Below, piece after piece: positions 327 through 49,671 of a stretch of DNA of 64,000 nucleotides. Both the position numbers and the translations under genes were made by a program. The notes under the pieces are model-generated. The model saw only the letters and a list, made by a program, of their open reading frames with translations, searched no databases and had not been told where the DNA came from. The first letter of the stretch is position 1. The number at the start of each line of letters is the position of its first letter. Source of the DNA: Lingula anatina (Eukaryota > Animalia > Brachiopoda); NCBI GenBank assembly GCA_051362555.1, contig CM120643.1, forward strand, positions 18,108,848 to 18,172,847. The letters run 5' to 3'.

Positions 327-361
327 TCACGTGATCACAACACGCTTTCAAAGATGGCTGC
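327..361 (+). promoter_or_regulatory. Spire proximal promoter motifs (E-box TCACGTGA; YY1-like AAGATGGC overlapping the ATG)
   Basis: Motifs are present in the CpG-rich patch at the start of exon 1. Confidence 0.4.
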
Positions 362-606
362 ACGGAGCGGCGGCGCACGAGAGAGGCTGTCGAAAATCGC
401 CGACAAACTCTCTCTCCAAGACATTTTGGAAGCCTTCAACGCCCCTCTGAACGAAGAACAAGCCTGGGCCATTTGCTTTCAGTGTTTGCAACACTTAAAG
501 AAACACTGGGACGCAGGGAACGCCATTTATATATATGGTCTCCCCTCCGTCTATGTTCACAAAGACGGAACGGTCTCTTGTGAAACTCCGACAACAGGAA
601 AGCAAA
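354..606 (+). CDS. spire: Spire exon 1 (KIND N-terminal part)
   Basis: MAARSGG...[26 protein letters not shown]...; donor GTAAGT at 607, phase 1. Confidence 0.93.
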
Positions 607-7700: not shown

Positions 7701-8801
7701 ATTAAAAACGCCTTTTTAGTGCATGGATTGCTTCTTTTTTAACTTATCTGAGAACAATTGCTATGGGGAAAGCATAAAATGGCAGGTAAATGGCCTTAAT
7801 CAATATCGAAAAAAAGAATCATATTCACCGTCCACTTTCGAACCCCGGGCGTCAGCCATCTTGACACAGTTTGAAATAACGCGGCTTCTCGACTCAGATA
7901 CGAGATGTAAACAATGCAGACAGCATGTCGTTTCGAAGGTGAGCGTGGACGTGAAGGAGAAGAGGAATTGCTCACCGAATCTTTGCAGGTAAGCGAGTTA
8001 TATTTACCAAAAGTACTTTAAAATGGGAAGATGGCAGTGGAAATCAAAATGTCTGGCAGAGGAAGTTAAAAAGCGTAGATAACTGCTAATAATTAACGTT
8101 TCCTCGCGTAACGCACTCGCAGCCAAATCACTCGCACTGGATACGTACTACTAGTTATATGAAGCGAGATAGTGCACTTTACCCCTGAGGTGTATAGTTC
8201 TGTAAAGCAGGAGGAATACCCTTTTCTGCTCAATGTGGTCATCTACCAGTACTTACAGACTAACCTCACACCATATTCTCGCAGGGGAATCCCATGAGAT
8301 ATACAATGTAACTCGAGTACTAGTGGGGTTAGAGGGTGTTCTTTGTACGGCACGTAACTACGTTAGCTTATTTGTAAATTTAATAATATTGTCAATGAAT
8401 ATGATTATAAGGAATGATTTTTTAGCCTTTCAGAGGAGGAATTGGGTGATACACCCCTTCAAGCACGAGTGAAGAGATCAGGTATGTTAATAATTTTAGC
8501 AGTATAACATGGGCGGATCCAGGATTATTTGAAAGGGGGGGGGGGTCCGCGGATGCAAAGCCGACCCCCCTAGTTGGCGTGGGGTCCTGGGCCTGCTTAA
8601 AACTTTGGTATTTTAGAGGGTGAACAGTGCCATTTGGTACGGTTTAGCACTTTACTGTAGTAAATTAGCTAGTCAAAATTCTAATTCCAAGTGGGGAATA
8701 TTAGTGTGATTTTTTTACATCAGTTCTTTGAAACCATGTGTGATTATGTTATTTCTTCTTGTGGCCTTTATGATTTAATGCAGCTGCAGATATTTAAATT
8801 T

Positions 8802-16034: not shown

Positions 16035-19000
16035 TTTTGCTAGGAGTGTCTAGAATAATTGAAAAACACCAAACAAGCATAGTTCCATGGCTTTTAATAT
16101 TGTTTATTTTCAGACGAAAACCTTAAAGGTTTTTTTGAACTTGCATGATTGGGTAATTTGGTAAAACAGTATGTCCTTCATCTCTTTTTGGTAACTGCAA
16201 TAAGCTTATCAACACATAACAAAAATTAAAGCATTGGTTTTCTTTCTTTCCCTTTATCATTTCTGCTTATGTCTTATTATTACTTAACCAGTTCTGCCAA
16301 GATATTGCAGGGGCAAATATTCTTCTGAGACAGTTTGTTTGTGGTATTGGAGCTACACATATATTATCTATTTTAATTCTTTTAATTTACCATAAAATTG
16401 GAACAACTATTGTAGTCTTTTTTCAAACTTTCATGAAATATGGTGATTGAAAAAATATAAAAATAGTTTATGGCTGTAATCATAGTAGTTTCCTGAATTT
16501 TGGCTATAATGTGATCTGAATTTCTGAGAAAAATTTATATTTATATATTTATTATTTTGTTTTATATAAGAAGAGTTTCTCCCATTTGGTGATATAGCAA
16601 AGAAAATGCAAACATTTGTTCCAAGTCTCTATTGAAAATGATACATTTTAAACACTCCCTGAAGATCAATTTTGTCCATTTCATGATTGCTTAAAAGCAC
16701 TTAATTTGATTATCACTGATCATATACTAGTATATTTCTACTTAATAGTTTAGATAAAAACAGCTTGGCAGATGAATGATTTAGACAGAAAAAAAGATTG
16801 CCTTTGTGATTTGAATTTTACTAAAAAAAATATAATATAACAAAATTGTTTTAAGTTAGCTGTTATCAGTCCCAGAGAAAAAAAATCATTTATTAGTTTG
16901 TGTTTATGCATGTTATGTATGTGTGAGTGCATGTTATGTATGTGTGAGTGCATGTTATGTATGTGTGAGTGCGTGCATATATGTGTACATGCATGTTTGA
17001 TTGTGCCAGATTGAAGAGTATCTAAAAATTACAAAAAAATGAATAAATACATCTCAAAATGAATATTACAAGTATATATAAGTATAACTTGCACAATTGT
17101 CCAGTACAAAATTGATAAAATTACTGAGTAGAAATGGCAAAGATGCCGTGATAGACTTGCACTGAATAACCCGTCTTATCAGGCAGTTGAAAACAGAGCC
17201 TTCCTTCAGCTGTGAGTCGGAAATAACTGTGTAATTTCATCCTGTTATTTTAGTAAATTAACTGAGACATTCTTATTGTGATATGCAGCCACTTTTTACC
17301 TTGTCATCTTAAGATGATTATCAAAATAATTGTGTACTTAATAATTTTTCTTTTTCTATTTTTTTTAGGTACAGAATGTCAGGTATGTATCAAGGATCAT
17401 CTCAAGACTTTTTTAAATGCTTTTTTTTTTAAATCATAGATAATTAGATCACATTAAGAATGGAATTTTATTAATTTATTTATATAATTAAGCTGTGTTT
17501 TCAGAAGTTTTAAAAAAGGTATTTTTGTTATAACAGATTACTTGAGACAGGTAAATGAACAAATGCAAACAATTATAGATGTAAAAACTTGTCAATGTAC
17601 ACGTAAATAGGTTGAATGTCAAGAGAAACTGGAAAAAAAGCATTAAGCACTAAGGTATCAGCTCTTTAGAGTGGCTAAAGCATTTTCTGGCAAAAGTAAA
17701 ATTAAACACCAGTAATGCTTTTTCTCCGTGGTTTCTGTCAAGGAAATTTATATTAAGTCTACTTAACGTTTCATGATAAACATCAATAGTGGTAAGCAAA
17801 TTTGGTTATGGTTTTGGGAAAAAAGTGGTTGGATCCAGACGATGTTATTTTCACAGTTCTGTACCTTATGACCCTGAGATGATAGGGGAGATAATTTTGA
17901 TAAAGCAGGAGAAAAAAAAAAAAGAAAATGTGTGCAGAAGCTGGGGAGCTTGTGCAGTTCAAATAAAAGGAGCTAAAGCAACTCATTGTGGGAAAAGAAA
18001 AAAGTGCACAAAATAATTGGTAAAAAAGGAAAGACCTTTAAGCACAATCATTTTAATTCTAGGTGATGCAAAATGCTATATTGGGCCTTTATAGAATATG
18101 AATGTCAATGTAGCCAGCTAATAATTCATTGATTACAAAATGCCTGAATATTGGAGGAAGTGTATTACTCTTAATTCAAAGTGATGTATAAAAAAGGATC
18201 TTTGAAATTGTCCTTTTCTTCTAAGAAAATTGAATCTATGTTTTTTTTTTTTTTTTCAAAAATAACTGCATGATGTTTCATTTTCTCTCCAGTATTAAGA
18301 ACGTCAAAATGACAAGGATTTTATCTTTGGCAAGTGCTGTTCATTATGTCAAAATGGCGTTATCTTCTAAATTTTTTTCAATAATTTCATAAATTGGTTA
18401 TCCTTAGATCATTGAATCCCTGGGGTTAGTCCTGTTCAGTGCTTTGGACTACGGTTTGCCAGAAAATGAAGAACAACGCTTGAGCCCTCTCTTGGAAAGT
18501 GCCATTGCTCGCATGACAGGAAATGATGCCGATAAAAGCTCCAGTGATGCCGGCCATGATGATGGTTGCCACAGCGATGAGGGTATTGCAGAAGATGAAG
18601 ATGAGGATGGAGGTCAAGGTCAAAGTGTTACATTTCAAGATGTCATACAGGTAGAGTATAGCATTATGGTTTGCCAAGCAAGATTGATTGTGATCCTTAA
18701 AGGTTTACTTGTTATGTAACTGAGACACTTGGTACTGAATTTTTTTGCTCAAGTTACGCAAAGCTTTAAATTAAAGCATGTTCAAGTCAGTTTCAGCCAG
18801 TTGAAAAATGTTTCATTGGATCTGTAAATATAGTTAGAAATATTCATGATGTTTAGATACTCTTTTTGAACTCGTGTTGGCAGTTTCATCTACATCTTAT
18901 CAAAGCAAGCTTAAGGTTTCAAAAAGTTGAGACCTAAACATGTATTTTTTCAGTCGATGTTTCAGCCAAAACAAAAGAAAAAATCTGTTACTCAAGATTT

Positions 19001-22000
19001 GCTCTAGGTGATCGATGATTCAAGTCGTAAGGTAACAGGTTTTGTCGAGTCTACTTTAAGTTGAAATCTTTTTTCTTTTAGGACTGCATCAATCACTTGC
19101 ACAGTCCGGGAGAGGCTGCCAGTCATTACAAGGCAGTGTGCAGAGCTCTGCTGGCGGAGGCTCAAGAATTACTTACCTTTCTTGTCAATATATCTTTATG
19201 TAGAGAGGTAAGTTAAGTGTTAAGACCGATGTGTGTAAAGGGTCAAAATTCAAAGCAATACTGAGAGCTCTGTTGGTGGGGACTCGGGAATTACTTCTGC
19301 CTTTCTCTGCAATATATGTAGGGAAGTAAGTCACTTGCTAGAGCTTTGAGTTTAGATGGTAAAGTATTAATTGGTTTGTAGAGCTTTGGTGAAAGAGACT
19401 TGTAAAGAATTATAAAATATAATGGTTTTTTATGTCATATTTTCATGCATTTGTGGGAAATGTTTTATTTTTTCCAATTTGGAATATCACTTGAACATGT
19501 ACAAATGTTATCAATACAACCTATTCTGTCCATGTATTTTGTAGAAAGTTTGGGTATTTTGAATATTTGCATATTTTATTTAAAAAAGCAAATCAATGTA
19601 AATAAATTTGTAAATTTCTGTATTAGTTGTAGATTCAGTTAATTTGTCATTGCATCAGTTCAAAATGCAGCTTAACACCTTTCAATTCAAAACATGCTTC
19701 TCACTTTTAGATGTCATATTTAGAAACAATTTGTTGTGTTACACATCAGTTGCTGTTTTATTTACTTTTATTTAATTTGCAGAAATTAAAAGCTGAAGAT
19801 GGAGAAGAAGACTTGGAAGATCTCCAGAGGGCTGACTGGGTAGGATTTCATCATCACTAAACAAGAATGGGCATTTCATTAGTTCTTCTTTAGTGTTTTA
19901 TCAGGTCGATAAAGATTTTAAAAAAATTCTTTTAGCAGAAGATTTTAGTATAAACTCAAAAGTCATCCAGCATGATTAAATGACTAGTGGTAAAATTTCA
20001 CAGTACACTACTGTGTGGTATTATAGCAGGCCCTTAGAGTTAAAGATGAAATTTTTAAAAGATTATTGATTAACAAATTGATAAATTGGGGCCGTAGCGA
20101 TAGTCTGAAGGTTCAACAGTCCGAAGGTTCATTGGTCCGAATGTTCACTATATAACCTTCGGACCAATGAACACTTGGTTAAAAAATCTATGAAAATGTT
20201 ACCACTTTTCGAACCAATGAACCTTCGGACCAATGAACCTTCGGACTATCGAGACGCCCCCGATAAATTGCTTCTCTTAAATTCTTGCATTTCTGCAGTT
20301 TAAATGCACTTACAGCAGTCATTAAAGTATAATGTATTTATGAACATACAGTTAATAATCTGTAGAATCTTAAGAATCTGTATAACTTGGGACTCTTTAG
20401 GGCTAGAAATTTGTTCAAGTTATGCATTTAAGTTGGGCAATGTTCATAAGTTTCAGCTATTGTGAAAGAAAACATCGTTTGAAAAAAATGTTCAAGGTGA
20501 ATATTATTCCACAAAAAGTGATTTCTGTAGACAGTTAGTGGCATTTTGTATAATATTTGCATAAATCTGACTTGCAATATTATTTTTTCTTTGTTATTCT
20601 CTAGTATCTTCCAATACCGAAAAAGTCATCATTAATTAAAAAGTGATGCAAATATTAAACAAAATGTGTGTCACTGACGCAACCCAAAGAATTACTTTTT
20701 GTGGAATGCTGTACAAATGACAATTCATTAAAAAATTATTAGTTGTCAAGTCTGCTGTATTTTATTGTATTCTACTTTATATTTTATATTTTTATATATT
20801 TTATATTTTACTTTGTATTTCAATGTTGATAGGCTAGACTGTGGATGCAAGTAATGAAGACCCTGAGAAAGGGAGTCAAGTTAAAAGAAGTGGAACACGT
20901 CAACAAGCCACCAGTGGAATATGAACTGACACCATACGAAATATTGATGGAGGACATACGATCTCGGAGATATACGCTTAACAAAGTTACTGTAAGCATA
21001 TACACCTTAAAAAGGTCTCTACAGACAACTTTTACTGTATTTAATCTTTTCAAAGTTTTAAATACAGTGTCTGCATGTGTGCATGGGTAGGTGCATATGC
21101 ACATTGGTTTTATAATAAAATTAAATAAGGACTTTTTATAGGCTGTAAATAAGACTCACTCTACATAGCCTTTACAGATTTTCGGCTAGATTTTTAATTG
21201 TGTGGGAGTAATTTTAGGGCACTGTAAAGAAAAAAATTGGTGGCCGTATGTTCTGTTAATTTAGAAACTTTAACCACAATCTGGGGTAGGGCTAGCAATT
21301 TTTTTGGCTTAGCCAAATCACCACATTTTTGTCAATTTGTTATCAAAATGGTTATAATTTGGCTAAAACGAGTCAAATCAAGCCCTTTGTCTTTAGTCAA
21401 TTTAAGTCAGTTTTAGCATTTGGCTAAATTGGCGAGTGTTAGCGCTACCCCAGCACAATGATAATTATTAAATTAATTTGGAATGAAATATTTTCTTTAC
21501 AGGCAAATGGGGCCCTCCCTCCCAAACTAAAGCAAAACGCCCATGAGATAATTCTGGATTTTATCAGATCAAGACCTCCGCTGCACCCGGTAAGCACAGT
21601 CAATAAAAAAATAATAATAATAACACGCAAGAAAATGAAATAAAATAAAATAAAATAAAGTAAAATAAAAAATAATAATAATATAAGAAAGATAAAAGTT
21701 GGACACAGATTATTGAAATAAATTATAATGCTTAAATGGACAGAAGCATAGTATTACCTAATATTTGTGAAGAGATATTATTTGTCTCATATTAATTTAA
21801 TGAGAAATGTTTTCATGCTGTGTCATTGATTATGGATGGAAACATTGCTAGTTAGTTAAAAACAAAAATCATAATTAAGTGAACTTGAATAATTGTTTCA
21901 TTTCCAGGTTACAAACAGAAAGCTTGCCAATCCACGCCCTAGGACTCCAGACTTGCATGAACAGCTGATTAGCGAAATTAAAAACCCACCAAAACTCCGA

Positions 22001-23993
22001 TCTACGCCATATGAGGAAGAAGGTAAGATTTGATTGTTTCTGATGATGGGAAGTAGGTTTGAGTGGCTGGTAATTTTCAGGCTGCAAAGATTACAAAAAA
22101 TCATGTTGTACAGAGAATTACTTTTTATTCTAAATATTATTTGAGCAAATACAAAAATGTTGATTAATCAAAACATGCTATCACTTTAAAATGTGTATTT
22201 TTGGCAAAAGAAGTATTTCCTTGATGAAGAAATTTTTGTCTTCACAAGTATCATGTTACAGCTGTGTGATTTTTTTTCAAAAACATGAAGTTTGTCAGAT
22301 CTGAAATGCAGCCACTTTTTTCTCCAGATCACACCGTGTTTTATAAGTTGTTTTTGGTGGTGGTGGTGGTTTTAGTGGTTACTCTGTGAGTTCTATGTCA
22401 CTTATGGTGTCACAAGTAACACATTTGCAACTAACACAATAATAACATGCGGGTGCCTCATCAATTGCTTAACTTGCAGACAAATGTAATGCTTATTTCT
22501 CAAATAACATACTGACAATTAAATGAGGTATCAAAAAAAAAAAAAAAAACCTTGCATATAGATTTCAGAGAATCAAGATTCCTTAAATTGACGAAATTGC
22601 TTTAAGTTCCTGTCATTTTATTGTCAGTGTCAATATTCTATTTTACAAAAAGTGTATAAGCTATTATATTATAACATGAACAGTTATACTCTGCTTTACA
22701 TGTGGGATTTATGTGTGCTTTTTAACAAATGATTTGATGTATCAATATGAATCACTTGTCAATGACAATTACTTACCCAAACTTTGGATTTGATTATTTC
22801 TAAATGTATGCATTGAATGCAAAGTGCATTTAAAATTTAAATGATTTTAATATGCAGTGCTTAAAATTATTATCATCATCCCAGGCATTTCACTAATATG
22901 CCTCAAAAAAAAAAAGAAATAATAATAATAATAAAATAAATAAATAAATTAAAAATAAATTAAAAATAAATAAATAAATAAATAAATTAATTAATTTAAA
23001 TAAATAAGTAAATAAATAAATGAAATAAAATAATAAAGATTGTGTGCTTCAAGTGGTGCAAACAAATAAAAAATAAACACTGAAACTGGTGAAACTAATG
23101 GAATAACAATGCCTCATGACAGAAAACTACAGTAAGATGCTGAAGACATAAGTAGAACATTATGGGTGCAATGTTGCACAAAAATGATCAGTTGAGTAAA
23201 TGGTTCTGAGAAAGAGTAATAAATTGAGACATGATCCATCTTTTTTGTACACAAATACTCAGTACCAGCTCTCTCACTGACAAGTAATGATTTTTTGCAT
23301 AATTCTCAGTAATGTGCAGAGCTTATTGAGCGAACATCCATCAGAAGCATGTGTACTTTTCTTGACAGTGCCTTAAGATGTATGACAGTGATTGCTGATA
23401 ACTTTCAAATGCCAACTGATATTATTGCTTGATGCTTTTTTGTCACCACATGCACACTGCTGAATATTGAAACAAGCCATTAAAAAAAAAACAAGGAAAT
23501 GACAAGAAAACAAACAACACAACTTGACTTTGACTATGTAATGTAAGTTGTCTGGACAGCTATTTTGTCAAACTGATTACTTGCTTAAAGACAAACAATG
23601 AGGTTACGGCACAGCATATGATGAATCCTCCTGGCAATATCAACAGTTTTCCCTTAATTACCAGAGTATAGTTACCATATCCAAAACCTGTTTTCAGGTT
23701 TTATGTTTCCAATTTTTGCGTCATTTGAGTAATAGAGATGGTGAAATATTTTCGTGATGGTAGGATTAGAATTTTGTAATTCCCACTGTAAGTCTTTAAT
23801 ATATGGAAATTGCCAGTAATGCGTAATCATAGAAACTTGATGATGAATGATAGGATATTTTAATGGTGGATGTTTCTTTCTTGGCTGTGTCAGCCAGACT
23901 TAAGGGGTTTAGTGGGGTTTTCTCACTTGCATAGATCATTTCCGTTGTTGGTACTAGCTTCTTACAATTAGTGGTACATAGATGATAACTTTT

Positions 23994-24029
<36 letters not shown>

Positions 24030-27000
24030 AATGCTTATTTATTTTGATAGTAAGCAGGATTTGCCTCATTTTGATCAAGATGATTTTCAGTGTAACAAAA
24101 TTGGAAAAGTGCGAGAAGGGAAATAGATCACTAAATGCTCTTTAAGACATCGCAAGCTGCAGTGTTGAAGTACTAATTAGTGTGATTTAACAATAATGCT
24201 TTGTGTGCTTTATTGGGCCGATTAATTTTGATCCAAGTTGTGCTGACTTGGTTCATTTTAAACTGACCCATTTTATTCTTTCTTTCTGATAATGGCTTCA
24301 TAATCCATGATAGATTTATCACTTGTGATTTTGACATCTCACTGCTTCCTTGCATCACATGGTAGTGTAGTAGCACTCACCGCACATTATAGATGTTAGA
24401 TTTAATGATAGAAAAAAAAAAAAAAAAAAAAAAAAACGATGGAGATGGTTGAAGTAGTTGTGGGGGTGGTAGTGGGTGTATCCATTGATCATCGTTGCTT
24501 GCATTATGTGTGATATAGTTGTTTTTATTGTGATAGATTTGTGTAGCTATGTTGCCATCATAATGGTGATGGTTGTTGTGTGAAGTGTGATAGTTCCTAT
24601 CGTGTTGAGCACTAGTAATGTTACTGTTATTGTTAGTGTTACTTATCAACAGTCAAATTACATGAATGCATTTTAATCATTTGTATTTTAAGATAATATG
24701 TTCATTTTGATAAATTTTTAAGCAATTTAATATTAGATGATGTTTGAGCACTGCTAGCAATGTTTTGCAGTTGCTTTGTTGTTGTTGTTTTTAAAACTAC
24801 CTTTTAATGTTGGATTGATTTTGATTTGATTTCCTTACGTGGTCACATTTTCATTGTTGCTGTGGCTTGCCTGCATTGTACTAAGTGTGACTCCTCTGCA
24901 TTGCATTGCCTCTGCTGTGTGAACAGATTTGAATCGCTGAAAATTTTTTTAAAATTGCTTTTTATCATTGCTGTGAAAACTCGGGGGGCTTTAATAATTA
25001 AGTAGTCTATACCTTGGAAGATTTAGAAACTAGGCTGCTAGAACATATGTGTTGGAGAACATAAGTTCCACTTCTCTGAGAAATAAGCTCATGTCCAATT
25101 TGACAGTCTCTGGTTGACAACGTATCACTTGAAAACAGAATTCTGTTAGTCAGAGGTAGGAACTAAGGATTATTTGTAGAGGGTCAAATTTTTTTTTTTG
25201 TAATTGATGTATTGATGAGGGATAAGGTGTCCCAAAGATGTGCAGCGATCAGGCAGGCCACATATGCAGTGATTTGAGCAGACATCTTATGTTCAGATAT
25301 TTTCATGAAGCAGAACCATTACTGTTCACATTGAATGGGCAGGTCATTTTGAAAAAAAAAAAAAAGATACAAAAAAAAATTGAAAACCATATTAAAGTTG
25401 CTTTTAACCAATCCATAGTTGAAGATGAGGAAAAACCAGCCAAACCAGTACCTTTTGTGCCAAAGACGCCACGAATGAAGACCAAGCTGAATCATTGGCG
25501 CAGTGAGGAGACCATTAACAAATCCATGCAAGATGTCCGTGTGTGGTCAGGGTCACAGACCAGCCTCGCAGCAAATAGTCCTGCCTTTGTCAATTATAGC
25601 CCTGATCCAAATACAATCGACTATCACTTTAAGCTGCTTGTGATTGGTGGAAGTAATGTAGGAAAGTCGTCTTTTATACTAAGATATTCTGATAACAAGT
25701 ACAGTCCTGCCTTTGTGGCGACAATTGGGATCGATTTCCGTATAAAAAATATCAAACATAGAGGGCGTACTGTGCAGCTACAGATTTGGGATACTGCAGG
25801 ACAGGAGAGATATCGCACCATCACCACTGCTTGCTTTCGAGGGACGATGGGGTTTGTATTGATGTATGATATCACGTCAGAGCAGAGTTTCAATATGGTG
25901 GAGGATTGGCTGACCCAGATTAGAGAAAATGCAGATGAGAAAGCCCCTGTTATTATCGTGGGACACAAATGTGATCTTGAAGACAAGCGTGAAGTGTCGT
26001 ATGAATTGGCACAAAAATTAGCTGATGATTTGGAGGTTGATTTTTATGAGGCCTCCGCCAAGGAAGACTACCATGTAAGCCTCGTATTTGACAAACTTGT
26101 AGACAAAATAACTAGAGTCTATAAGCCAAAAGCTCGAAATTTTAATAAAAATACTGTGCGTCTGCCAAGAAGGGCAGTTTCCATCAGAAGATTTGAAAAG
26201 AAATGGACATCAGATGTTGATAAGTGTAAATGCTAAGAATGTGTTAGATGTCACAGACTGTTGAGGTGGTGATAAGTTGTTGTGTTCTGAAGAACCTGCC
26301 AGGGGCATGTACCACAAGTGAACGTTAGCCAAAATTGGTTCAAACTTTGAGAACAAAATTTCAGGCAACTTTGACCCAATGTGAGTTGTTGGTAGTACAG
26401 TTAGACATACGAAACACTTTTTTTTAACAAGCAAGATTTAGTTTTACGTTTCAGGTGGATACTGCTTTATTTCATTTTATTTTAGTGGACTATCAAGGAC
26501 TTGTCTTTAACTGAAGTAGGTCATATTTTTAATCCAAAAGTTTAGACCATTTCCAGCTAAAGCTCTTTTGAAAACGTCCCCCAGGTGTTACTGAGTATAA
26601 AAGTTGAGATTTTTGACTGTGTTCGTAGAACATTGGTTGAGCTTTGCCGTTATGGCCCAAAATGTGTTAGGAGTGACAGACTTAAAGTAGAGATTTTCCA
26701 TTGTGTTCTTACTATGCATTATAGATGAAAGGGTTTGCCAGAAAACATCAAAGTCCCAAGATGCTGCTGACTTTAAATATGAATCTTGCATATGCTTTCA
26801 GCTGATTTTTGTTTATGATTGTTTTTCATGTGTATTTACTATCATAGTAGTATTTTTGTTTTAAAATAGATCTGTCACATCTTGTTTTATCTTCTCCATA
26901 ACATATTGTTTTTGTTTATTGTTGCTAAGTTAGCATTGGAAGTGAATATACATTATTTTACATAAATATCACGAAGATATTTTTCAATTGAATTTTATTT

Positions 27001-30000
27001 ATAATTTTTCTGAAAATAGTAAATATTATTCCATTGTCAGTTTTTTTAAAAACTTTCCTATGGAAGGTTTTGCAATATATAACATTTGTATCAATTTGTA
27101 GACTGCTTTGTTGTTAAAGATAAATGTTTATTTACATAATACTAGCTAGGAAAGGCTACACCCTTGCTATTCCAAATTTGCAATTTTCACTATGCAAGAA
27201 TAGAGGTTTTTTTGAAGTTAATATTTTTACAGCAAATACTTGTTGTATACTAAGAAGATCATTATTTGATACTAGGTATGCTATGCTCAATTTAGAATGA
27301 CTAAACTGCCAAATTTGTGCAGATCTGTTTTTAGTCACATTAAGAAATGAATTTTCTAAAGTCATATAAAAATTAAGTGAGTTAAATAATATTATTATAT
27401 CTGAATCTAAATTGTAAATATGAAATACGATATCAAACAAAATACTCAAAATGAAGACTTTATACAACTGAGAAGTGATGATTATGAATTGAAAAGAAAG
27501 TTTTTTACCCTTTTTGATACTAAGTCTTCCACGGTAAAAAAGAAAATCATGACAGTATCAATGTGTTGTATAGTTCTTAGGTTTAAAATGTTATTGCTCA
27601 TGATATTAGATTTTTTTTCATAGAGCCATTAATCATGATAATGGGTATTTACTTTGACCAAAAACAACAGGGTGTCATGTGATTTGCAAAAAATAATTCC
27701 AAATTAACTTTGGAATTTTGTATTTGCTAATATTATGATTTTAATGTAAGATTTTGCTGAGGTGAACACATGAACTAACAGGTTTGAATTAATTCATATT
27801 TTTTTCATTTTATATTTAAAATGTAAAGGGGAAATCCAACATTTTATTAATCTGTACAGGTCTGATGGGATAAACTAAGTTGTTTTATTACTAAATTATT
27901 TTGTTTGAGTTATTGTTTAACTGAAAGAAATGATCGTCATAAGTTATAAACCAGACTGATCGAACAAAATATGTTAAAATGAAACATGGCTTCCCTTATT
28001 TATTTTTATTCATTTCATTCCAAAGGTTAATGTGTATCAAAATGGTTTTGTATATTTGAATTGAAATACTCTGTGGAATGCACTATGCAATGGATTCTTT
28101 GCATATATCGTTATAATTTCAAAATATTCCTTAAAACATTGTACATGTCTCTGAATCACTTTAATATTTTAAAATGTTTGAGGATTTTTTTGTTAATTAT
28201 TGGGAAGATGTATTTTTTCTTAAAATTTTGTTATATTATTTGCTATTATTATTTTTAAGGGAGATTTCATTTAATTATTATATTACCTTGTTTACTTGTA
28301 AAAGTAAGGTGCAGTTTCAATTAAGACTCATTTTACTAAGTAGATCATGTACAATTTAATATTAAAATGTTATTATTACAATTATAGATTAGTACTTTTA
28401 TCAGTATGAAATATAAATATGTTATTGATATTATTGTAAACATTCAGGCAATGAAACTTCATAAATTATGATACTGTGTCAAACTTTATCACATAATAAA
28501 TCACTGTTAGCCAACAGAATGTAATCTACTTTCCATTGTTTGTCTTGACTTGAACATTAAATTGAATTTTGAATTCAAAGTCTTTTTAATCATTGTCTTA
28601 CATTATAACATTAAATTTTGTTCATTGAGCCTATCTGCCATGTCATTGTGACTTCTCTCTTCTATATATTCCAGCAAGTTTAAAGATGTACTTTTTAAAA
28701 CGAGTAATTATGCTTAAAGTATAGAGGGAGCTATCATATAATGTGAGCGCATCTTACTGGTACGCTGAAAGCATAGTCAAACTGGCATGCTACATGTACT
28801 TGGTATTGGGACATTGGAACTATAAAATTGAGACATCTTCCCTATTTATTACAGAAATATTACTGCCTTTAGAGAACCAGAACTTCCTTTTCTGTGTGTA
28901 CTGGCACACATCAGTATATTACTTCCTCAATATAGTTTGCCTAGGGAAGTTAGCATAGGAATTTGTATTGGGTTGCTGTGGAGATACTTGAAAGTGTGTT
29001 GGTGTAGGGTTGCTGTAGGCGTACTTGAAAGTCAATTGGTATTGGGCTCATGTAGGCAGCCCTCTGGCATTATAGAGTTTACTGCATTATAAAGACCATG
29101 ATATGAGCCTCCCTGGCAGTAATTTACCAGAAGAATGTATTTTACAATGAAGGTAAGGTGTATTAGCCAGAGGAAAGGGAAGTGTGTAATTAAGAAACGG
29201 GTATAATGACAATTAAATTGCAATATTATTGTTATCTTAATTTGTAAAAGATGAGTAAGAATTCTTATTAATTTATGTATGTATAGAGAATAGTGTGCAA
29301 CTTTCTGAATTGCTTAAGAACACGTAGGGCACAGCAATAAGGTGCCTTTTTCATTTCTGATGAGATTTTTATATGTGTGTGTTGGGTTATGCAAAATGAT
29401 TTATTTGGAATGCTTACCTGCTGAATACATTTGTTTTACACAAAAACACCAATTTAAGAGTTGGTAATTATTTAAAAACCAAAGATTGCTTATGAAATAC
29501 TGAGGAATGACCTAAATTACACCTGTACCCCTGCTATTTGCTAGTCTGCAAGTGATGAAATTATTCACGAGTATGTGATAATGGGAGTACCTTGCGGAAA
29601 TAGTTGAGGTGCCAAACTTGTCTGTTCATCTACTGCATTTTATTTTCTCTTCGTATGAAGGAGGCTATGTTTTTATTGGACAAGATGTCTCAAAAATATC
29701 CCTCATACATTTTGATGAGATTTTCAGGATAGACAGTTATTCAGAGGGGGGGAAAGAAGTAATCTTTGTGTCTTTTGGTATTTTAAAAGAATTTGAATTG
29801 CCTTTTGCCTAGCTGAGGGCTGAGCACTTGGGGTGCCCTCTTTTGTTCAGTATTTTAGGTAAAAACTAAAGAAGGAAAGGGTGTGTGTGTGTGTTGGAGG
29901 ATGGGAAAAAAAGCAAAAGAAAATTGAAGAAAGAAAAGACAGATAAGAAAAGAGGTTGGAAAAATGGATAGGTGGAGGAAAAAGCAGATAGGAAAGGTAC

Positions 30001-42000: not shown

Positions 42001-45000
42001 GGCAAGAAAATACATCATTGTAAGAGAGGATAAGTAATAGGCTGGTTTAGGGAAAGTAGTGTAGAAGGGCTGTACTAATGTTTCTCTAAAACTTTTTTTG
42101 TATCATTTGGCAAATTTGAATTTCAACTCTGTTGTAGATTGGCTGAAAAATTGGTGATGGCAGTGGCGGCAGTTGTCTAATTCTCTCTCTCTCTCTCTCT
42201 CTCTCAAAAACGAGGAAGAAACCAAAAATTAAGATCCTGTAAACAATTTATCAACGGACCAATCCTTGAGGAAATGGATCAGTTTTAAATTTTGTCTTGA
42301 TAGCTTCCTTGTAAATGCCAATGCAACATTATATACACAAGGCATTAACACATTTCATGGTTGCCATCCTTAAAAATACATCTAAATCTAAATGTGGGTA
42401 TGAATTCTTCAAAATAGTGGAAAATCACACAAAATGGATGATAATATTCGTAATGATCACTGACCGTGACCCATTTAAATGATTGATAGCTTTTCAGTGT
42501 CTGGAGACAGAAAAGTAGACTTACAACTTTTCTCAGTGTGTTTTTTAAAATAACCAAGAGAACACTTATGACAGTTTTTAAGATAACCAAAAGAACATTT
42601 TTGACAGTTCTTGAAATTTTTCAATGCTTAAAGTTTACAAACAGGAAGAAATTTGACCATCTGTATTGAATTTGAGTTAGGAAAAAGGAAAAATGCGACA
42701 AAGAATGACAGTGATTTACAATGAAATGGAAAATATGTGTTTCTCCCCTTGAAATTGTTCTACTCTGCAATTTATGTCACAGTTCACTGAGGATAAACTG
42801 ATAAAGGTCAAAAAGGGCCACATGAAACATGAACCAATGTTCTCCCCCAAAAAGTTATTTGTCAAAAATATTCTCTCTCATCCAAGAATGTTACTGACTT
42901 TTGTGAAAAACAACCTTTACAGTGTATGGAAAAAAACTATTTGTTAATGTATTTTGTCTAGCAATAGTGTCCAATCTTAGTATTATGAAAAAAATTGATA
43001 CTAATTAATGAATTAATGAATAAAGAAAAAGGATAATTAATAATATACAAATTAATTAAATTTAATATAAGTTTATGATTGATTTTTAAAATAAATAAGA
43101 ATGTGTGAGCTGTGGTTTATTTTCCATATTTTTGGTTTTATTGAAATAATTATATTATTTTTTCCAAATCAATAGAAGATTGGCCATTGATAATCAAATG
43201 TATTTTTCTCTCATTAATAAAATGTCATGAGGTTACAAAGTTTATATTGATAATATGATACCAGTTAAAGCGAAGTAGATGCTCAGATTTGTGCACAGAT
43301 GCATGAATTGGACTTAGATGCCCTTTGCTTTGTTCTGAATTTTCCACTCGAAAGATTGCCACATCCAGATGAATACTCACCAACTGTGTAAAGGTGTTTT
43401 GTTGCAAAACAAACCCCCAAAATAAATATGTCAGTTTTGATAAAGGTGACCCTGACCTTCACTAGAGAGTTGCAAGTCACTGATGGCACCATTGCCCTTT
43501 TCAACAGAAAGAACTGACCTTGGTCGTCTTTATTATCTGATTGATCTCTGCCCTCGAGACAAATGATAATTTCTCCTTATTTTGAAGCAGGATGTTTTTT
43601 TTAAACAAATGAGTGATTGGTCAGTAGAAAAGTAAGTTCCAAATGACTGCTTGAACAAATATTTGAAGGGCAATGAAAGAAAGAGAAAAAACAAAACCAA
43701 ACGAAAAAAAAAAATTCAGTTGACTATTCCAACTACTGATAAAAGGGAACACAGAGTACAAAATTATGGAATTTATTTTCTTAAACATTACCATGGCTAA
43801 GATCCATAAGAACTTAAAAAAAGTAAAAACGTTTGATTTTATTGTATTGTTTTGATTAGATAAGTGATAGATTGACTTACAATAATAATTTGACATATAT
43901 TTACAGTTTTATCTTCAGAAAGTAGATTATTCTGGCACAAGTCCATGCCTAATGAATGGACTTTGAGTGTGCTCTTCACAGTGTGCAACAGGGGCAGATC
44001 CAGAGATATTTTCTTACAGTCTTCCATATTATATTTGTTGATCCTTCTTCCATCTTTTGACCGTCTTCCGACAAAAAAAAAAATAGATAATGTAAACTTG
44101 AAAATCTGACCGTCTTCCGGAAGACCCAGAAGATGGCCTAAATCTGCCCCTGTGCAATACAAATAAAGTTGAATTATTGACTTAAAATTTGTTGTTTTAT
44201 CATATTATGGTAAAAACTTGAAAATTTTGTCACTTAAAAATTAGTTAATATCTTAAAATACCTGGAACTGACTTGGCCATATTAGGTGACAAGCTTTTCA
44301 AAATTATCTGGAGGCCCATTTTCAAGTTTGATGAAAGTTGAAAAAATTACTTTGGCAGAGAATTGTCTTCTGACAAAATATTCAAGATTGACTAAATTTC
44401 CAAGTTTTTACCATAAAATTTGTTCTTAGTAATAATTTATAATTATTTTTATATATACAGGTGACAGTATACATTTTATTTTCAATTTCTGTTATAAAAA
44501 TGATACTAATGATGTTAAATGTATAATAAAAATTTTTATTGTTTTTTGTAGTGGAAACGTCCAGAACAACAGTGTCAGAATCTGACTGCAGCCCAGCCCC
44601 TACACGTAGACTAATTAAGGCTGATCTCTCCCTTCTGATCACTAGTTCTGTAGAGGTGAGTTTTTTGTAAGTTAATTATGCATGTGCATGTTTGCCCACA
44701 CATACATGTGCACAGACATTCATGAACACACAATCATATATAGTAGAATGAGCATGCTGGCACACACACAATTGCACACAGAGGAATTTACTAGCACACA
44801 CGAATACACATATACACAGACAAATACATTGAATTTCATCTTTCTCTCTCTCTTTCTACATGCACTCAGGCATACATGCGTGAGGGCCTGCAACACACAG
44901 TTTTGTGGAAAATTGACCAATGATCAAGCTTAATGTCATATAGATTTTTGGAGTTAATATTTTACACCCACCCTTGAAATTGCGCATTCCATCTTTACAT

Positions 45001-48000
45001 TCAGCTTGACAGGGATAATGTTGGTCTATAGATATGTATAAATATATCACAGGTGTCCTTAAGAGTTTTCGTATCAGGTGATAAACCCATTATTATTCAA
45101 GTCTGAAGCACCTGATACCATTAAATCTGTAACAAAATGGGGTCTTAATACCTTTCCCTTTAAAATGGGCTTCATTGAGATGCATAGCTTGTGTTTAGCA
45201 ACAAACTTAGCAACAGGGATCAGTTTCAGAAAATAACTGTTGGACTGATAGTTGGTCTACACTAGGGTATTCTTTAGACTACTTCCAGTTAGGCTTCATC
45301 AGTTACTGTAACAGTTATGCTGTAGTAGTCCAATAGACTAACTTCTAATCTAAAACATTTCTTTCTTGACAGAGTTATAGAGATGCTGCAATATTTCTGA
45401 AGGATGGACTCGTACTCATATTATCCTATATTTCAAAGTAGAATAAAATTCATGTCTGGCATTTAGATGAGCCTTAGGTCTGCCAACAGGAGATGAGACT
45501 CAAGGTTTCCATGTTGGGCAGTTTAAAACACTTGAAAATTATGATCATGATCTTGACAGTAGTCCAAATGTAATAAAATGCTTAATGCGTTATTTAATGG
45601 GATTCCTTGTCTGGAATGCTGTGGTCATTAGTGTCAAGTTTGGATGGACATTATATAGGTTGGTTTGAGGTGTCTGGCGTTTGATTGATGTAAAGATGAC
45701 TATGGTTGTGTTTACAATGAGGATGGGTCAGCCCTTCTTGGTAAAACACTTCTTTGCAAACTGTCTGTTAAGCTAAGCTTGACACAGCTTTTTATTTTGC
45801 TCAAGTAAAGTAAAAGTGTTCTGAAATGCAAAGTTATTGATTAAAAGTTTCTGAATTGGGCTATGAATAAATTTAAAGTAATTATCAGTAAAGACTACTG
45901 AAACTATAAACATATTTTATAAATGATCCCTTTGAACAAATTTTGGAAATGTAACCTTGCTAACAGTGAAGTCATGATAGCAAAGTTACTGTTTCAGTGA
46001 CCTTGACAATGAATTTCTTCTTCTTCTAGTTCTTCTTCTTATTATTATTATTATTTTAAGTCTTAAAGTAACCTTGCCCTAACGGTAATGTCACGAGCAA
46101 GGCAATCAACTTTCAATGACCTTTTAATGAACTTGATGTAACCTTGACCTAGCTTGAATAACATCTTTCATTTTACTTCACAGGATGAAGTAGATGATGA
46201 AGACAACGACACTGGATATGATGGCAGCGAGAAAAAATTCTCTAGTCTTAACAGCTCTCAAATGATGCCATGGCAAAAAACAGGTTGGTGAACTTAAAAA
46301 TACACTACACAGGCATGTTGAAATGATATAATTGAATGGAATGTTACTTAAATCATTGAATATAATTAAAAGGATAAAGATATTATTTGATTGCCATTGT
46401 TTTTTCTTCAAGTTGCTCTAGACCTTGCAGTCCAATCAGCCAATGATGTTCCAGAAAGACGTCACAGTATCAGTGTATGTGAGAGCCCCGGGGCCTTGGC
46501 TAAGGTACTGCCCCTGGGCCAAGACCTCTCTCCCATCCCTGCACCCCTCCAGACCAACCAGGACACAATTGTAAGTGACCCTGACCTTTTAGTTGACATT
46601 GACCTTTTGAGTGACCTTGACCTCTCAAGTGCTAGCCAAGAAGGTGATGGGTTTGATGCTATTTCTTTGCCTACTACTAAATCTCTGGATTCTCTGCGCC
46701 GTGAAAGCGTGTGCGCCTGTCGGCAGAGTTGGACTAACTGCATGAGAGGATGTGACTGGTTTCCTAATGCGTTACCAGTGAGTAGCTTTCTTGCTTTGTG
46801 ATAAGCTCTCTTGCTAGCATACAAATCTTTTGTCAAAGGCTTTTGTAATAGCTTCTTTTCCAGCCTAGACACTGTCAATATAATATTTTAGCATAAATGT
46901 GCAGTGGGTTTCCTTGTCCTAATTTGCAGCAGCTGCCATAAGTCTGGCCAGAATTATGCCAAAATTATTTGTCATTGACTATAATACTAACAGATCTTTG
47001 CTGAATAGTGTTCATTTTTTTCTTCCAAAATTAAATCCTTGTGACAAAAAAAAAAAATAATCAAAAAATGTATGCTAGTTTGAGTTTATCTTAGATTTGC
47101 TTCAACTCTAGCTATCTTAATCTAATCACACTCAAACTTCGGTATTCTTTTAGATTAAATGTAACAAATATACTGCTGAAGCACTTCGCTGAGGTACATT
47201 CATTCAAGTGCTCTCTGCACTTAATACTATTTACTAACTATACTCTCAATGCAGTTATGGCTTCATACTTGTTCTCAAAACATACATCTATTAACAATTT
47301 GTGAGATGGGTTTACCTTTGTGTAATAATATGCTCACTGATGCCAGAGATAACAGATGTCTGTTTGCAAATTAGTATTGTATAATAGTTTCTTAGAAGAG
47401 TTTTCCTCACGTTAATTTAGAAAAAATACCACCATTTTTTAGAAAAGGGTAGAGGCTGGGGGTGAAAGATTTCAAGGTCACATTTTTTAATGCAGCTCGT
47501 TACAAATTCTTCAGGGGCAGGTTTCACAAAAATTACCATTCTGTAGCCTGAAATTGGATTAAATATGTGGACAAAAATGTGATCTACTTCACATTGTTCA
47601 AGTTAAATCCACAGAAGTCCACTTGAATAAAGCCCGCATTGGTCTGAACATAAGTTATCTCACCCAACAAATGTTTATATTCACTGTCACAACTAACACT
47701 TTGTCACAATGTCTCACCCAGAACATTGCTGTTGCAGGTCCCCAATCCCATGGAATGTCTGTCACTGCGGATAGATGAAGTAATGCACATCAGGAGTGTG
47801 TTGACCAAGGCAGAACTAGAGTGTCTGTACGGGACTGATATGGACATGTATAACCAGGTGTCCAAGGGGAAGGTGAGTGATGATATATGGGTGCACGCAC
47901 ATGTATTTCTATGTGAACACAGGCATGTGCTCCCCTAGGTCTGCAACTAGCTGAGACCACAGAGAATCTCTATCTCTTTATTAAGGTTTAGAATTGAAGT

Positions 48001-48940
48001 CACTGACGGAAAACTTAAAGATACAAGCACCTGGGCGTGCGCGAGCACATACACACACGTTTAATTTACGCATGACATAAGAAAAATATATGGGCATGGC
48101 AATATCGGCCTATACAAACGTGCATTTTTCTCAATAGCGCATTCACAAATGCAATGCGTTAGTACATGTGTGTGGCTCTTAATTCTTTCAGATCTGTTTT
48201 ACCTGCAGAGTGACAAAGTTTGGCATGTTTGGTCCTTGGGGAGTCAAGTGCAAATTCTGCAAGAGAAAGGTGTGCAACAAATGCAGTAAAAAGGTAGGTT
48301 AGATGTAAAGCATGACCAAGAGAGAATAGAATTTTTACATCATGATAAGTATTTATATGTTTATATTCACTCAGTATAGATTTGTTTCATGACATTTAAC
48401 CAAAGTTGTATTTCTCTCATTTTTAAAAATACAATCCTAAGTGTTATTTAGCTTTGACCCTGGTGATCCAAAATTATAATTTATATGTTTTTTTAAAATC
48501 TAGATTGTATTTTTTAAAAATTTATTATTATTTTTAGATGCGTATTCCCACAGAGCATTTTGAACACATCCCTGTGTATACACTTAGCCCTAGTTCCAGT
48601 AGTCCAGAGGAGAAAGAAGAACAGTTTACTACCAGGTATTCTAAAAGGCATTATAATGTCACAGAAACATGTTTCAATGATCAATTGTTAAAAAGAAAAA
48701 GATTATAATGGACTTTGATAAAAAAAATCCTAGGCAAAGGAGACATTTTGTGCTTGGTAGCACATCATCTCTGTCACAAAATTAAATTATTGAAATTAGT
48801 GATAGGATGGCAAAACAAGAAAAATGATTACTTAGAATTTGCGGAAAAATTATAGAAGAGAAAAGAGTGCTGTTGTGTACCGGCTGGGGTGAAATGCATC
48901 TTATCTGGGGCTTGTTTTACAAGAATTTAAGTTTTATTTT

Positions 48941-48975
<35 letters not shown>

Positions 48976-49671
48976 GGGGGGGGGGGGTGCATTAAATTAG
49001 ATCATCCAATTACTATAAGCTTTTTACTGCATCAGTTGTCTTTCACTTACCACTTGTCAGTAATTGGTTGGCCTATCACCCAAGGAATGTTTTAATGAGA
49101 AAGATCAGTGGAATGCAGTTCAGCCTATTTATAAGTTTTGTTTAGAGATCACAAGTTTAATTTATGTTGTTTATAGTACTAAACTTATTATATAAATCTT
49201 CCTGATTTTTCTAGTACTTACTCTCTGCCACCTTCACCAGTTTTGGACAAAAAGATATTTGACCACCATAGCTATGAAGTACAAAAGGAGAAAAAGTCCA
49301 CGCTGACACGTAAGGTGACCATCATGGACAAAGACAAGGATCATGAGACACGCCGGTCAACACTGTCCAGAATCTTTTCAAATGACAAGGACAAAGATAA
49401 GACCAACCACCACCATCATCACGGCAAGAAACACCTGTCGTTAACAAGAAAGTTCTCCAAAGGTAAAGGTGATGCCTCAAAATTGCAGGGGCCAATGATG
49501 GACGTTTGTAGAGACTGTAAAGAAATGGTGCTCAACGTAATACGTGCTAGTCGGACAACGCTTTCTGCGACGTCATCTTCCACGCCCTCTGCACCAAAAC
49601 CGGCCAACCCGGTATCACGAAAGCCTTCCAGACAGTTTCACCTCGATTTGAAGCCAATCTATAAATTTTAG
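354..49671 (+). CDS. spire: Protein Spire homolog (actin nucleator), 15 coding exons, ~804 aa
   Basis: Exons: 354-606, 17369-17382, 18408-18650, 19082-19207, 19783-19839, 20833-20991, 21503-21589, 21908-22022, 44552-44655, 46184-46283, 46413-46777, 47738-47872, 48192-48293, 48538-48635, 49215-49671. All introns are GT-AG with compatible phases; total 2415 nt = 805 codons. Motifs: KIND ([21 protein letters not shown]; [11 protein letters not shown]), WH2 cluster (LRKGVKLK; [12 protein letters not shown]; [15 protein letters not shown]; [10 protein letters not shown]), [19 protein letters not shown]-type cysteines. Confidence 0.95.
4742..4771. repeat. (GA)n microsatellite
   Basis: Visible directly in the sequence. 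Confidence 0.9.
7101..7304. repeat. Compound palindromic element (possible non-autonomous TE)
   Basis: Perfect 18-bp inverted repeat GTCAGCGAGGGTTATGTG (7114-7131 / 7163-7180) around CACGAGTGCGAAGCACGAGTG, then a second 11-bp inverted repeat TTAGACCACGG (7197-7207 / 7294-7304). Confidence 0.7.
7914..9186 (+). pseudogene. Relic spliced + strand unit in the Kolobok-like element; last exon is an L2/CR1-like fragment
   Basis: Exons 7914-7988 (donor GTAAGC), 8434-8481 (donor GTATGT) and 8986 onwards; the reading frame is not maintained across the junctions. Confidence 0.4.
8986..9186 (+). mobile_element. L2/CR1-clade LINE ORF2 C-terminal fragment
   Basis: [41 protein letters not shown] resembles the SY-EAL...L--RR--LC...H-LHHLLP tail of L2/CR1 ORF2. 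Confidence 0.55.
10230..12567 (-). pseudogene. Relic spliced transposase-like gene inside the Kolobok-like element
   Basis: Exons ~12567-12316, 11415-11286 and 10582 onwards have good splice sites. [14 protein letters not shown]...LAAKYLLD and [15 protein letters not shown] resemble, from recall, Kolobok-type transposase motifs (R-INIG...W...LA-FLLD; IVFESCL-ELF). Stops and frameshifts are present. Confidence 0.55.
12593..12611. promoter_or_regulatory. TCTCGCGAGA palindrome adjacent to an ETS site (CCGGAAGT); promoter-like
   Basis: Exact motifs at 12593-12602 and 12604-12611 in a CpG-rich patch just upstream of the - strand relic gene. Confidence 0.55.
14599..14747. mobile_element. MITE, PIF/Harbinger-like
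   Basis: TIR GGCTCCGTAACT / AGTTACGGAGCC with CAG on both sides (3-bp TSD). Confidence 0.7.
15997..16030. repeat. (TG)n microsatellite
   Basis: Visible directly in the sequence. Confidence 0.9.
16908..16970. repeat. 21-bp minisatellite, 3 copies
   Basis: GCATGTTATGTATGTGTGAGT repeated three times. Confidence 0.85.
17369..17382 (+). CDS. spire: Spire 14-nt micro-exon 2 ((S)TECQ)
   Basis: Long polypyrimidine tract + TAG acceptor and GTATGT donor; converts exon 1 phase 1 into the phase 0 needed by exon 3. Confidence 0.8.
18408..18650 (+). CDS. spire: Spire exon 3 (KIND)
   Basis: [36 protein letters not shown]...; 243 nt, phase 0/0. Confidence 0.93.
19082..19207 (+). CDS. spire: Spire exon 4 (KIND C-terminal part)
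   Basis: [34 protein letters not shown]...; matches the Spire HYxAVCRAL motif. Confidence 0.93.
19783..19839 (+). CDS. spire: Spire exon 5 (putative myosin-V tail-binding motif region)
   Basis: [19 protein letters not shown]; resembles vertebrate LxxLQNADW. Confidence 0.88.
20088..20261. mobile_element. MITE with internal 15-bp repeats and 8-bp TSD
   Basis: GGGGCCGTAGCGATAGTC ... GACTATCGAGACGCCCCC; repeated (A)GGTTCATTGGTCCGA units in both orientations; GATAAATT on both flanks. Confidence 0.8.
20833..20991 (+). CDS. spire: Spire exon 6 (WH2-A/B)
   Basis: [20 protein letters not shown]...[24 protein letters not shown]. Confidence 0.95.
21281..21453. mobile_element. MITE copy 1 (family shared with 63388-63560)
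   Basis: TIR CTGGGGTAG(G/C)GCTA; CACAAT on both flanks; colinear with the reverse complement of 63388-63560. Confidence 0.8.
21503..21589 (+). CDS. spire: Spire exon 7 (WH2-C)
   Basis: [29 protein letters not shown]. Confidence 0.95.
21908..22022 (+). CDS. spire: Spire exon 8 (WH2-D), ends in phase 1
   Basis: [38 protein letters not shown]+G; donor GTAAGA. Confidence 0.92.
23997..24026. repeat. (TC)n microsatellite
   Basis: Visible directly in the sequence. Confidence 0.9.
25419..26236 (+). CDS. Intronless Rab3-like small GTPase ORF nested in Spire intron 8 (candidate alternative terminal exon of Spire, or stand-alone gene from ATG 25475)
   Basis: G1 GGSNVGKS, G2 TIGIDF, G3 WDTAGQERY, Rab3-like [22 protein letters not shown]4 GHKCD, G5 EASAK, C-terminal CKC prenylation motif. 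Acceptor ...ttttaaccaatccatAG at 25417-25418 opens the ORF in phase 1. Confidence 0.92.
32463..32658. mobile_element. Degenerate MITE / inverted repeat with ~55-bp arms
   Basis: TGGGGACTCCTGCTGAATGCA versus TGCATTCAGCATGAGTCCCCA, with flanking partial complementarity. Confidence 0.6.
37667..37973. mobile_element. MITE with ~78-bp near-perfect TIRs
   Basis: CAGGCCTACCCAACTACCAGACTCGGCACCGAATGATCCTGAAT... and its reverse complement; GTATA on both flanks. Confidence 0.88.
39014..39264. mobile_element. Palindromic MITE (Harbinger-like terminus GGCTGCGTTCACA)
   Basis: Nearly the whole 250 bp folds back on itself. Confidence 0.85.
40985..41136. mobile_element. Short TIR element
   Basis: CAGGCCCATAGCCAG / CTGGCTATGGGCCTG; AGGGGG on both flanks. 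Confidence 0.7.
41644..42033 (+). CDS. Small single-exon ORF (129 aa) with a KH-like domain, nested in Spire intron 8
   Basis: Coding-like composition and CpG content in AT-rich surroundings; [23 protein letters not shown]...[17 protein letters not shown] resembles the type-I KH pattern (GxxG loop, then I-x-G-x-x-x-x-V); strong acceptor at 41422-41423 upstream. Confidence 0.55.
   Translation: MKLTEKDIHDLASEGVHEPPQNIELFDIVTAHFHPDIIKGPLGKNLKMVCKELNVSFDLDVTYHTDGPKEFFIHGPFQDIVKSYQILCMMHGHLLKRNEKQSKHEKVVPVEHSRLGTPAGKKIHHCKRG
43989..44152. mobile_element. Short TIR element
   Basis: CAGGGGCAGAT / ATCTGCCCCTG; TGCAA on both flanks; related terminus (CATGGGCGGATCCAGG) at ~8508. Confidence 0.7.
44552..44655 (+). 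CDS. spire: Spire exon 9
   Basis: (V)[34 protein letters not shown]; phase 1 in, phase 0 out; RRLIKA motif as in other Spire proteins. Confidence 0.85.
46184..46283 (+). CDS. spire: Spire exon 10
   Basis: [33 protein letters not shown]+G; phase 0 in, phase 1 out. Confidence 0.8.
46413..46777 (+). CDS. spire: Spire exon 11 (possible alternative in-frame donor at 46505)
   Basis: (V)[26 protein letters not shown]...; ERRHSI motif; donor GTGAGT at 46778, phase 0. Confidence 0.75.
47738..47872 (+). CDS. spire: Spire exon 12 (Spir-box)
   Basis: [28 protein letters not shown]...VSKGK. Confidence 0.93.
48192..48293 (+). CDS. spire: Spire exon 13 (modified FYVE zinc finger)
   Basis: [34 protein letters not shown]. 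Confidence 0.95.
48538..48635 (+). CDS. spire: Spire exon 14
   Basis: [25 protein letters not shown]...; phase 2 out. Confidence 0.92.
49215..49671 (+). CDS. spire: Spire terminal exon 15
   Basis: Contains the last FYVE cysteine pair ([15 protein letters not shown]) and C-terminal [15 protein letters not shown]; phase 2 in. Confidence 0.9.

Follow-up and report, generated by a model that had tools for sequence, protein, structure and literature searches.

A spliced Spire-Rab fusion from an alternative last exon in the brachiopod Lingula anatina

In the brachiopod Lingula anatina, the gene for the actin nucleator Spire carries an intronless Rab3-like GTPase as an alternative last exon, and the two are joined in a spliced transcript. 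The gene lies on the forward strand of a 64,000-nt window of assembly GCA_051362555.1 (contig CM120643.1, positions 18,108,848 to 18,172,847). The predicted 623-aa product reads, in order, KIND, four WH2 repeats, a linker, a Rab domain, and a CxC end (CKC). The fusion is confirmed as real and expressed, it is under selection, and the literature searched holds no description of it; it is known from one species so far, and the function given to it below is what we infer.

RNA reads confirm that Spire exon 8 (21908..22022, which encodes WH2-D) is spliced onto the Rab exon (coding part 25419..26236) in a real transcript. Four of nine Lingula RNA runs, from three studies, were mapped to 24800-27300, with ~6-25% of each run read. 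The end of exon 8 precedes the Rab exon in 17 reads (8 in run X4, 5 in X7, and 4 in X5, hence three of the four runs and two of the three studies), and since mates of one pair can overlap, the molecules may number fewer than 17. Loose read ends before 25417 agree on a sequence found at 22002-22020, where exon 8 runs out; the two bases after it match on either flank, which puts the joint at 22022>25419. Coverage at 25426 is 8, 5, and 4 in X4, X7, and X5, equal to the junction read counts. The + strand is read in all three stranded libraries, and neither an internal joint nor an indel is listed within the Rab exon in the four runs. The fourth run, X1, has 16 reads in the region, none of them over 25388-25555, and so speaks neither for the junction nor against it. 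Intronic background amounts to about one read pair at 25052-25303 (X1 and X4). All 31 X7 reads over 25419-26236 are 95-99% alike to the window, with many private synonymous differences, and the junction is therefore also present in a fairly diverged animal. The initial annotation had predicted the 22022-25419 junction while granting that phase agreement alone arises by chance one time in three; with exon 8 loose ends in X4, X7, and X5, chance no longer accounts for it.

The gene model agrees with the reads. The donor GT after 22022 and the acceptor AG before 25419 are both phase 1, as first proposed, and from 25421 the reading frame runs for 271 codons before it closes with CKC-stop. Nine exons of 1054 + 818 = 1872 nt, with GT-AG borders at all introns and a single stop, yield 623 aa, which upholds the KIND-WH2x4-Rab-CxC frame of the initial annotation. 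Pfam matches KIND at aa 19-204 (PF16474, E=1e-53) and a Ras domain at aa 423-583. The four WH2 repeats are assigned by alignment with vertebrate Spire1, and the Pfam WH2 model gives no score at E<=1e-4. NCBI holds the same product as an automatic model, XP_013411068.1 (623 aa, 'protein spire homolog 1 isoform X2 [Lingula anatina]', KIND + Ras), which ranks first of 768 matches when longer proteins related to the Rab part are sought. It differs from the window product at 4 aa and therefore comes from another haplotype.

Within the last exon, a linker (25419..25612, aa 352-415) leads into the Rab G domain (25631..26113), which is followed by the C-terminal CxC (CKC, 26225..26233), a predicted double geranylgeranylation site in which both Cys align with the C-terminal Cys of Rab3. 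The linker is predicted to be disordered (pLDDT below 50) and has no significant similarity to the Spire C-half, Lingula Rab3, or other fetched proteins in BLAST and phmmer comparisons. Downstream, 26237..27300 is the likely 3' untranslated region, with patchy + strand RNA coverage to the end of the mapped region; the first ATTAAA/AATAAA hexamers stand at 28361 and 28495. Loose read ends also occur in this region at 26498 and 26563 (3 reads in X7, 4 in X5). Short motifs taken from these ends are not found in the window, and the ends probably reflect allelic insertions or deletions.

The Rab exon, linker included, is under purifying selection. The reads list 38 differences, 29 of them in the coding exon, where 24 are synonymous and 5 are replacements (ratio of replacement to synonymous polymorphism, pN/pS, 0.056; p=3e-12); these counts take only differences above the read threshold, pool several animals against the window allele, and score two changes in codon 594 separately. 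The G domain and tail hold 17 synonymous and 3 replacement differences, and the linker, also constrained, holds 7 and 2 (p=5e-4). Ahead of the first in-exon Met (25419-25474), where the initial annotation had asked for a test of coding constraint, one synonymous and one replacement difference are too few to be informative. The low read counts and the single species would suit an error of assembly or annotation, or stray splicing into a Rab pseudogene, but such an account is largely refuted and scarcely credible given a junction in three runs from two studies, a frame intact in two haplotypes and in the read variants, and the low pN/pS.

The selected product might instead be a stand-alone Rab, initiated at the internal Met at 25475, at a later Met, or from a separate promoter, with the Spire splice serving as a promoter source or the fusion as a tolerated by-product. 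In-frame Met codons do lie early in the exon, the segment ahead of them offers just the two differences given above, and X1 lacks a junction read. Yet none of the four runs has any depth in the bin that precedes the acceptor (25304-25387), no 5' loose end other than that of exon 8 is listed at the Rab exon, the frame reads through from the Spire ATG, and no separate version of this Rab occurs in the best 120 of 7754 near-length matches. The four runs thus give no sign of Rab transcripts from a promoter of their own, an outcome that the initial annotation had named as damaging to its proposal. A stand-alone product is very improbable.

By sequence, the GTPase stands nearest to Rab3 and is evolving fast. 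The Pfam Ras match to the Rab part scores 194 bits; the nearest solved structures by sequence are Rab3 (211-220 bits), ahead of Sec4/Rab8 (<=180) and Rab27B (<=158). In a predicted model (predicted template modelling score 0.60, with linker and tail disordered), the best PDB fold matches are Rab3D/Rab3. The G domain is 58% identical to Lingula Rab3 (XP_013381633.1 / XP_013381632.1). In trees that carried no Rab27 or Rab26/37 rows, the domain joins the 25 Rab3 rows with 93/88 support, its branch measuring 1.56 vs a median of 0.051 (~30 times), and a second tree of 24 rows places it with Rab3 at support 89. Approximately unbiased (AU) tests on the 24-row tree reject neither sisterhood to Lingula Rab3 (p=0.51) nor a Rab8 grouping (p=0.36). 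The domain does not group with CRACR2A in the tree.

The nucleotide-binding motifs are largely recognizable. G1 (GxxxxGKS), the G2 Thr, G3 (DTAGQ, with the catalytic Gln), and G5 (SAK) are present, as are the switch I core (F, T, GIDF), an 11-residue segment, and both Cys of the terminal CxC. G4 reads HKCD rather than NKxD, with the His codon at 25964-25966, and G1 also shows changes. Against 55 Rab3 sequences, 86 of 117 Rab3-conserved columns are kept and 31 are changed. The changes include YY>CF in switch II and, in the alpha3-beta5 loop, W>D and N>K, by which the YSWDN-type loop is lost; 54-55 of the 55 Rab3 rows keep these residues. The changed switch II and loop positions are contacts for effectors and for REP/GDI.

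Because the effector-selecting residues of switch II and the alpha3-beta5 loop are not kept, the domain is judged Rab3-derived rather than a Rab3 member. The initial annotation had described a complete Rab3-like Rab with CxC that acts as a vesicle-identity switch: Rab3 is indeed nearest and CKC is present, but the switch is unproven because G4, both Tyr of switch II, and the alpha3-beta5 loop are changed.

To judge from its lack of introns, the exon likely arose as a retrocopy of Rab3 that Spire took up as a second terminal exon. Marks of insertion such as a poly(A) remnant or a target-site duplication would hardly outlast so much divergence. Lingula Rab3 has two equal-length isoforms that differ in one internal ~40-aa block (alpha3-beta5 loop + G4), and the likely parent would therefore have introns where the Rab exon has none. 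These isoforms are likely products of mutually exclusive exons that alter the effector-selecting surface. Ordinary Lingula Rab3 is kept on another contig. The isoform-specific matches of the Rab exon to the two Rab3 isoforms stand at 4 vs 3, too even to point to either as the donor.

What the Rab isoform lacks is defined by the canonical isoform X1, XP_013411067.1 (735 aa), whose first 351 residues it shares. Tiled on the window, isoform X1 continues at 44552 through 49671, and the Rab exon therefore lies in a 22.5-kb intron 8 with phase-1 acceptors on both routes; the exon 8 donor is common to both. Canonical exon 9 (44552..44655) has a basic-hydrophobic-acidic array like that described for the myosin-V GTBM (PMC11231147) and likely holds this motif. 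The remaining canonical exons (46184..49671, placed by isoform X1 tiling and alignment) encode the Spir-box, FYVE_2, and the stop. As read from these exons, the gene is SPIRE and the predicted Rab isoform is non-canonical, without GTBM, Spir-box, or FYVE_2, all three of which go together given the array in exon 9. A swap of Spir-box/FYVE for a Rab had been proposed at the outset; the exons from 44552 are absent as that proposal would have it, but the likely myosin-V motif in exon 9, which it overlooked, is lost too.

Work on other Spire proteins suggests what such an exchange would do. Canonical SPIRE is arranged as KIND-WH2-GTBM-SB (Spir-box)-FYVE_2, and its FYVE_2 binds RAB27, RAB3, and RAB8 via switch 2 (PMC11231147). 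Mammalian SPIRE1 binds RAB3A and RAB27A via the domain that is replaced in the Lingula isoform (PMC11231147). Spir is back-folded and autoinhibited, and its GTBM recruits myosin V (PMC5021521). In HeLa cells, KIND-WH2 by itself stays in the cytosol (PMC5021521), yet the Spire D isoform of Drosophila, which has KIND + 4 WH2, can rescue spire mutants if Capu is present (PMC2034408); KIND-WH2 is therefore a working module without an address. REP and RabGGTase bring about the prenylation of CXC ends, and GDI their recycling (PMC5902221).

The Lingula isoform is probably a self-anchoring actin nucleator on secretory-type vesicles, held by its own geranylgeranylated tail, fitted with a nucleotide switch, and uncoupled from myosin V. 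A Rab3 mRNA copy would have inserted in intron 8 and been captured via a phase-1 acceptor. The protein would be made full length, and REP/RabGGTase would prenylate its CKC. KIND would bind the tail of an FMN/Cappuccino formin, and the WH2 array would nucleate actin. The back-folded KIND-FYVE state, inhibitory in canonical Spire, would not form, and without GTBM, actin would be built on the membrane with no direct recruitment of myosin V. Guanine nucleotide would still be bound by the Rab domain, and control would shift from autoinhibition to membrane cycling by GEF, GAP, and GDI, and the effector-selecting surface of Rab3 would be freed to diverge. A stronger form of the proposal, in which an effector-GTPase fusion with a functional prenylated Rab cycles through GEF/GAP/GDI, lays tracks free of both myosin V and FYVE autoinhibition, and is maybe shared by other brachiopods, is offered tentatively.

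Several observations weigh against the self-anchoring nucleator. Expression is low, at 1.3-4.8 reads per million records, and the short reads join the Rab exon to exon 8 alone, not to KIND. No second species with the fusion is found among the proteins compared. The Rab3 placement at 93/88 sits on a long branch, and the AU test leaves the Rab8 group standing. Among fetched Rab domains, G4 has Asn in 203 of 206 motif matches, and two His are this protein itself; nucleotide affinity may therefore be reduced. No solved Rab with His at G4 is present among five alignments compared. Given the contacts made by switch II, YY>CF could weaken REP/GDI binding.

The main competing account builds on these changes. 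The protein would be a lipid-anchored fusion and a constitutive membrane nucleator in which the Rab is a degraded switch, surviving as a folded prenylation handle or a GEF sink. The G4 Asn>His change, the altered G1, switch II YY>CF, the lost YSWDN-type loop, and a branch ~30 times the median end branch all favor such decay. The strongly purifying variation across the G domain and tail (17 synonymous, 3 replacement) and the retention of G2, G3 with its catalytic Gln, and G5 speak for a working domain, as would a natural His at G4 in Rab39, for which no literature passage was found. A degraded switch deserves attention but is unlikely.

The isoform might also act on canonical Spire. Its Rab could dock on Spir-box/FYVE_2 to form a heterodimer with eight WH2 and one myosin-V site on the vesicle, or the isoform could compete for formin. 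FYVE_2 binds Rab3/Rab27/Rab8-type GTPases by switch 2 (PMC11231147), nucleation is promoted by Spire dimerization (PMC5021521), and one promoter region serves both isoforms; switch II and the effector-selecting loop, however, are the very parts that have changed. Such a partnership is rather improbable. A predicted complex of the Rab domain with canonical Spir-box/FYVE_2 scores 0.76, with one control at 0.57, and is used neither for nor against this account.

Within the proteins compared, the fusion is rare. The KIND + Rab architecture was sought in 500 proteins, drawn from the best 120 of 768, 2092, and 7754 matches and the best 150 of 73,360 representatives; 197 have the Spire N-half, 304 have a Rab domain, and the one with both is the Lingula protein. 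A second fusion among the 73,360 representatives should outscore single-domain matches, and the survey, bounded by clustering, word filters, and few brachiopod proteomes, speaks to rarity, not absence. Pfam finds no other added domain in 24 odd or long Spire proteins. No paper on a Spire-Rab fusion was found in searches of open full text, titles, and abstract openings. A 2024 SPIRE evolution paper mentions neither Lingula nor brachiopods in its main text and five text supplements. Alternative exons of vertebrate Spire are treated in a 2019 preprint (10.1101/591974) and in the mitoSPIRE1 preprint (10.1101/2020.06.19.161109). The novelty first claimed for the chimera thus holds for the papers searched but not for databases, since an automatic NCBI model already exists under a name silent on the GTPase.

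The other Spire exons, all on the + strand, complete the model. Exon 1 (354..606) supplies the ATG, the start of KIND, and a phase-1 donor. Exon 2 is a 14-nt microexon within KIND (17369..17382), recognized by its AG/GT flanks and a match to aa 85-89 of the NCBI model; it sits between introns of ~16.8 kb and ~1.0 kb. A candidate exon at 8434-8481 is rejected because it keeps phase 1 and is absent from the NCBI model. KIND continues in exon 3 (18408..18650; Pfam) and ends in exon 4 (19082..19207), after which come exon 5 (19783..19839), exon 6 (20833..20991, WH2-A and WH2-B), and exon 7 (21503..21589, WH2-C).

Intron 8 holds a second nested open reading frame (ORF), 41644-42033 (+), of 129 aa from its ATG and with a GC content of 0.43. 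KH-domain clusters predominate among its language-model neighbors, a lead and no more at a best score of 0.84, and Pfam gives a weak UPF0262 match below cut-off; it is possibly a nested KH-like gene. A good-looking acceptor lies upstream at 41422-41428 (+). Splicing from exon 8 in phase 1 to this acceptor would add one Gly, then a stop, and so give a Spire D-like KIND-WH2 isoform; the acceptor could alternatively mark a 5' untranslated exon of the KH-like gene. Two further features lie on the opposite strand. A 237-aa trypsin-like peptidase stretch at 54625-55338 (-) (Pfam Trypsin_2, E=8e-6, just under cut-off) is the final exon of a gene that runs toward Spire. Exons at 59831-62476 (-) show protein-kinase motifs by eye (HRDIKSANV, DLGFAR) and may belong to an IRAK/Pelle-like kinase. 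These exons and the peptidase exon downstream may be one gene of kinase-protease architecture.

If the proposed role holds, the recruitment chain of Spire (FYVE-membrane contact, Rab binding, myosin V, formin) would collapse into one polypeptide. Nature here supplies a construct with which to ask if tethering to a membrane is enough to activate Spire, and if Spire actin works without the myosin-V link. The isoform lends independent evolutionary support to cooperation between Spire and Rab3-type GTPases outside vertebrates, and it offers what is likely a clean case of a gene copy replacing the domain that once bound its family. Its significance is limited in that expression is low, the fusion is so far known from a single species, and the sequence has passed unremarked in public annotation.

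Each ingredient of the fusion has precedent; the literature searched yielded no case of a nucleator joined to a relative of the GTPase that acts upstream of it. Canonical animal SPIRE, including Lingula isoform X1, is alike over aa 1-351 (KIND and four WH2), after which GTBM, Spir-box, and FYVE_2 give way to linker, Rab, and CxC in the Rab isoform. Drosophila Spire D is likewise a natural KIND + 4 WH2 isoform without the C-terminal half and is active in vivo with Capu, but as described it has no GTPase or lipid anchor added (PMC2034408). In mitoSPIRE1, SPIRE1 exon 13 confers a new membrane address by alternative splicing, as the Lingula exon may do; its 58-aa cassette leaves GTBM, SB, and FYVE in place, whereas the Lingula terminal exon swaps these for a whole GTPase (10.1101/2020.06.19.161109).

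On the GTPase side, the Rab3 subfamily shares the CxC end and 58% G-domain identity, while the Lingula Rab exon is intronless, fused to Spire, and changed at 31 of 117 columns. The large Rabs Rab44, Rab45/RASEF, and Rab46/CRACR2A also carry a C-terminal Rab behind other modules, and some isoforms of Rab46 include the Rab domain while others omit it, like Lingula Spire (PMC8303950). They differ in an EF-hand/coiled-coil N-terminus, where the Lingula fusion has KIND and no EF-hand by Pfam, with a Rab nearest Rab3. The chimeric retrogenes TRIM5-cyclophilin A and jingwei, in which an intronless copy was captured via splicing as a new C-terminal domain and then evolved fast (PMC5470649), resemble the origin suggested here. 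In Lingula, retroposition is the likely route, and the captured family is one that normally binds the very domain it has replaced.

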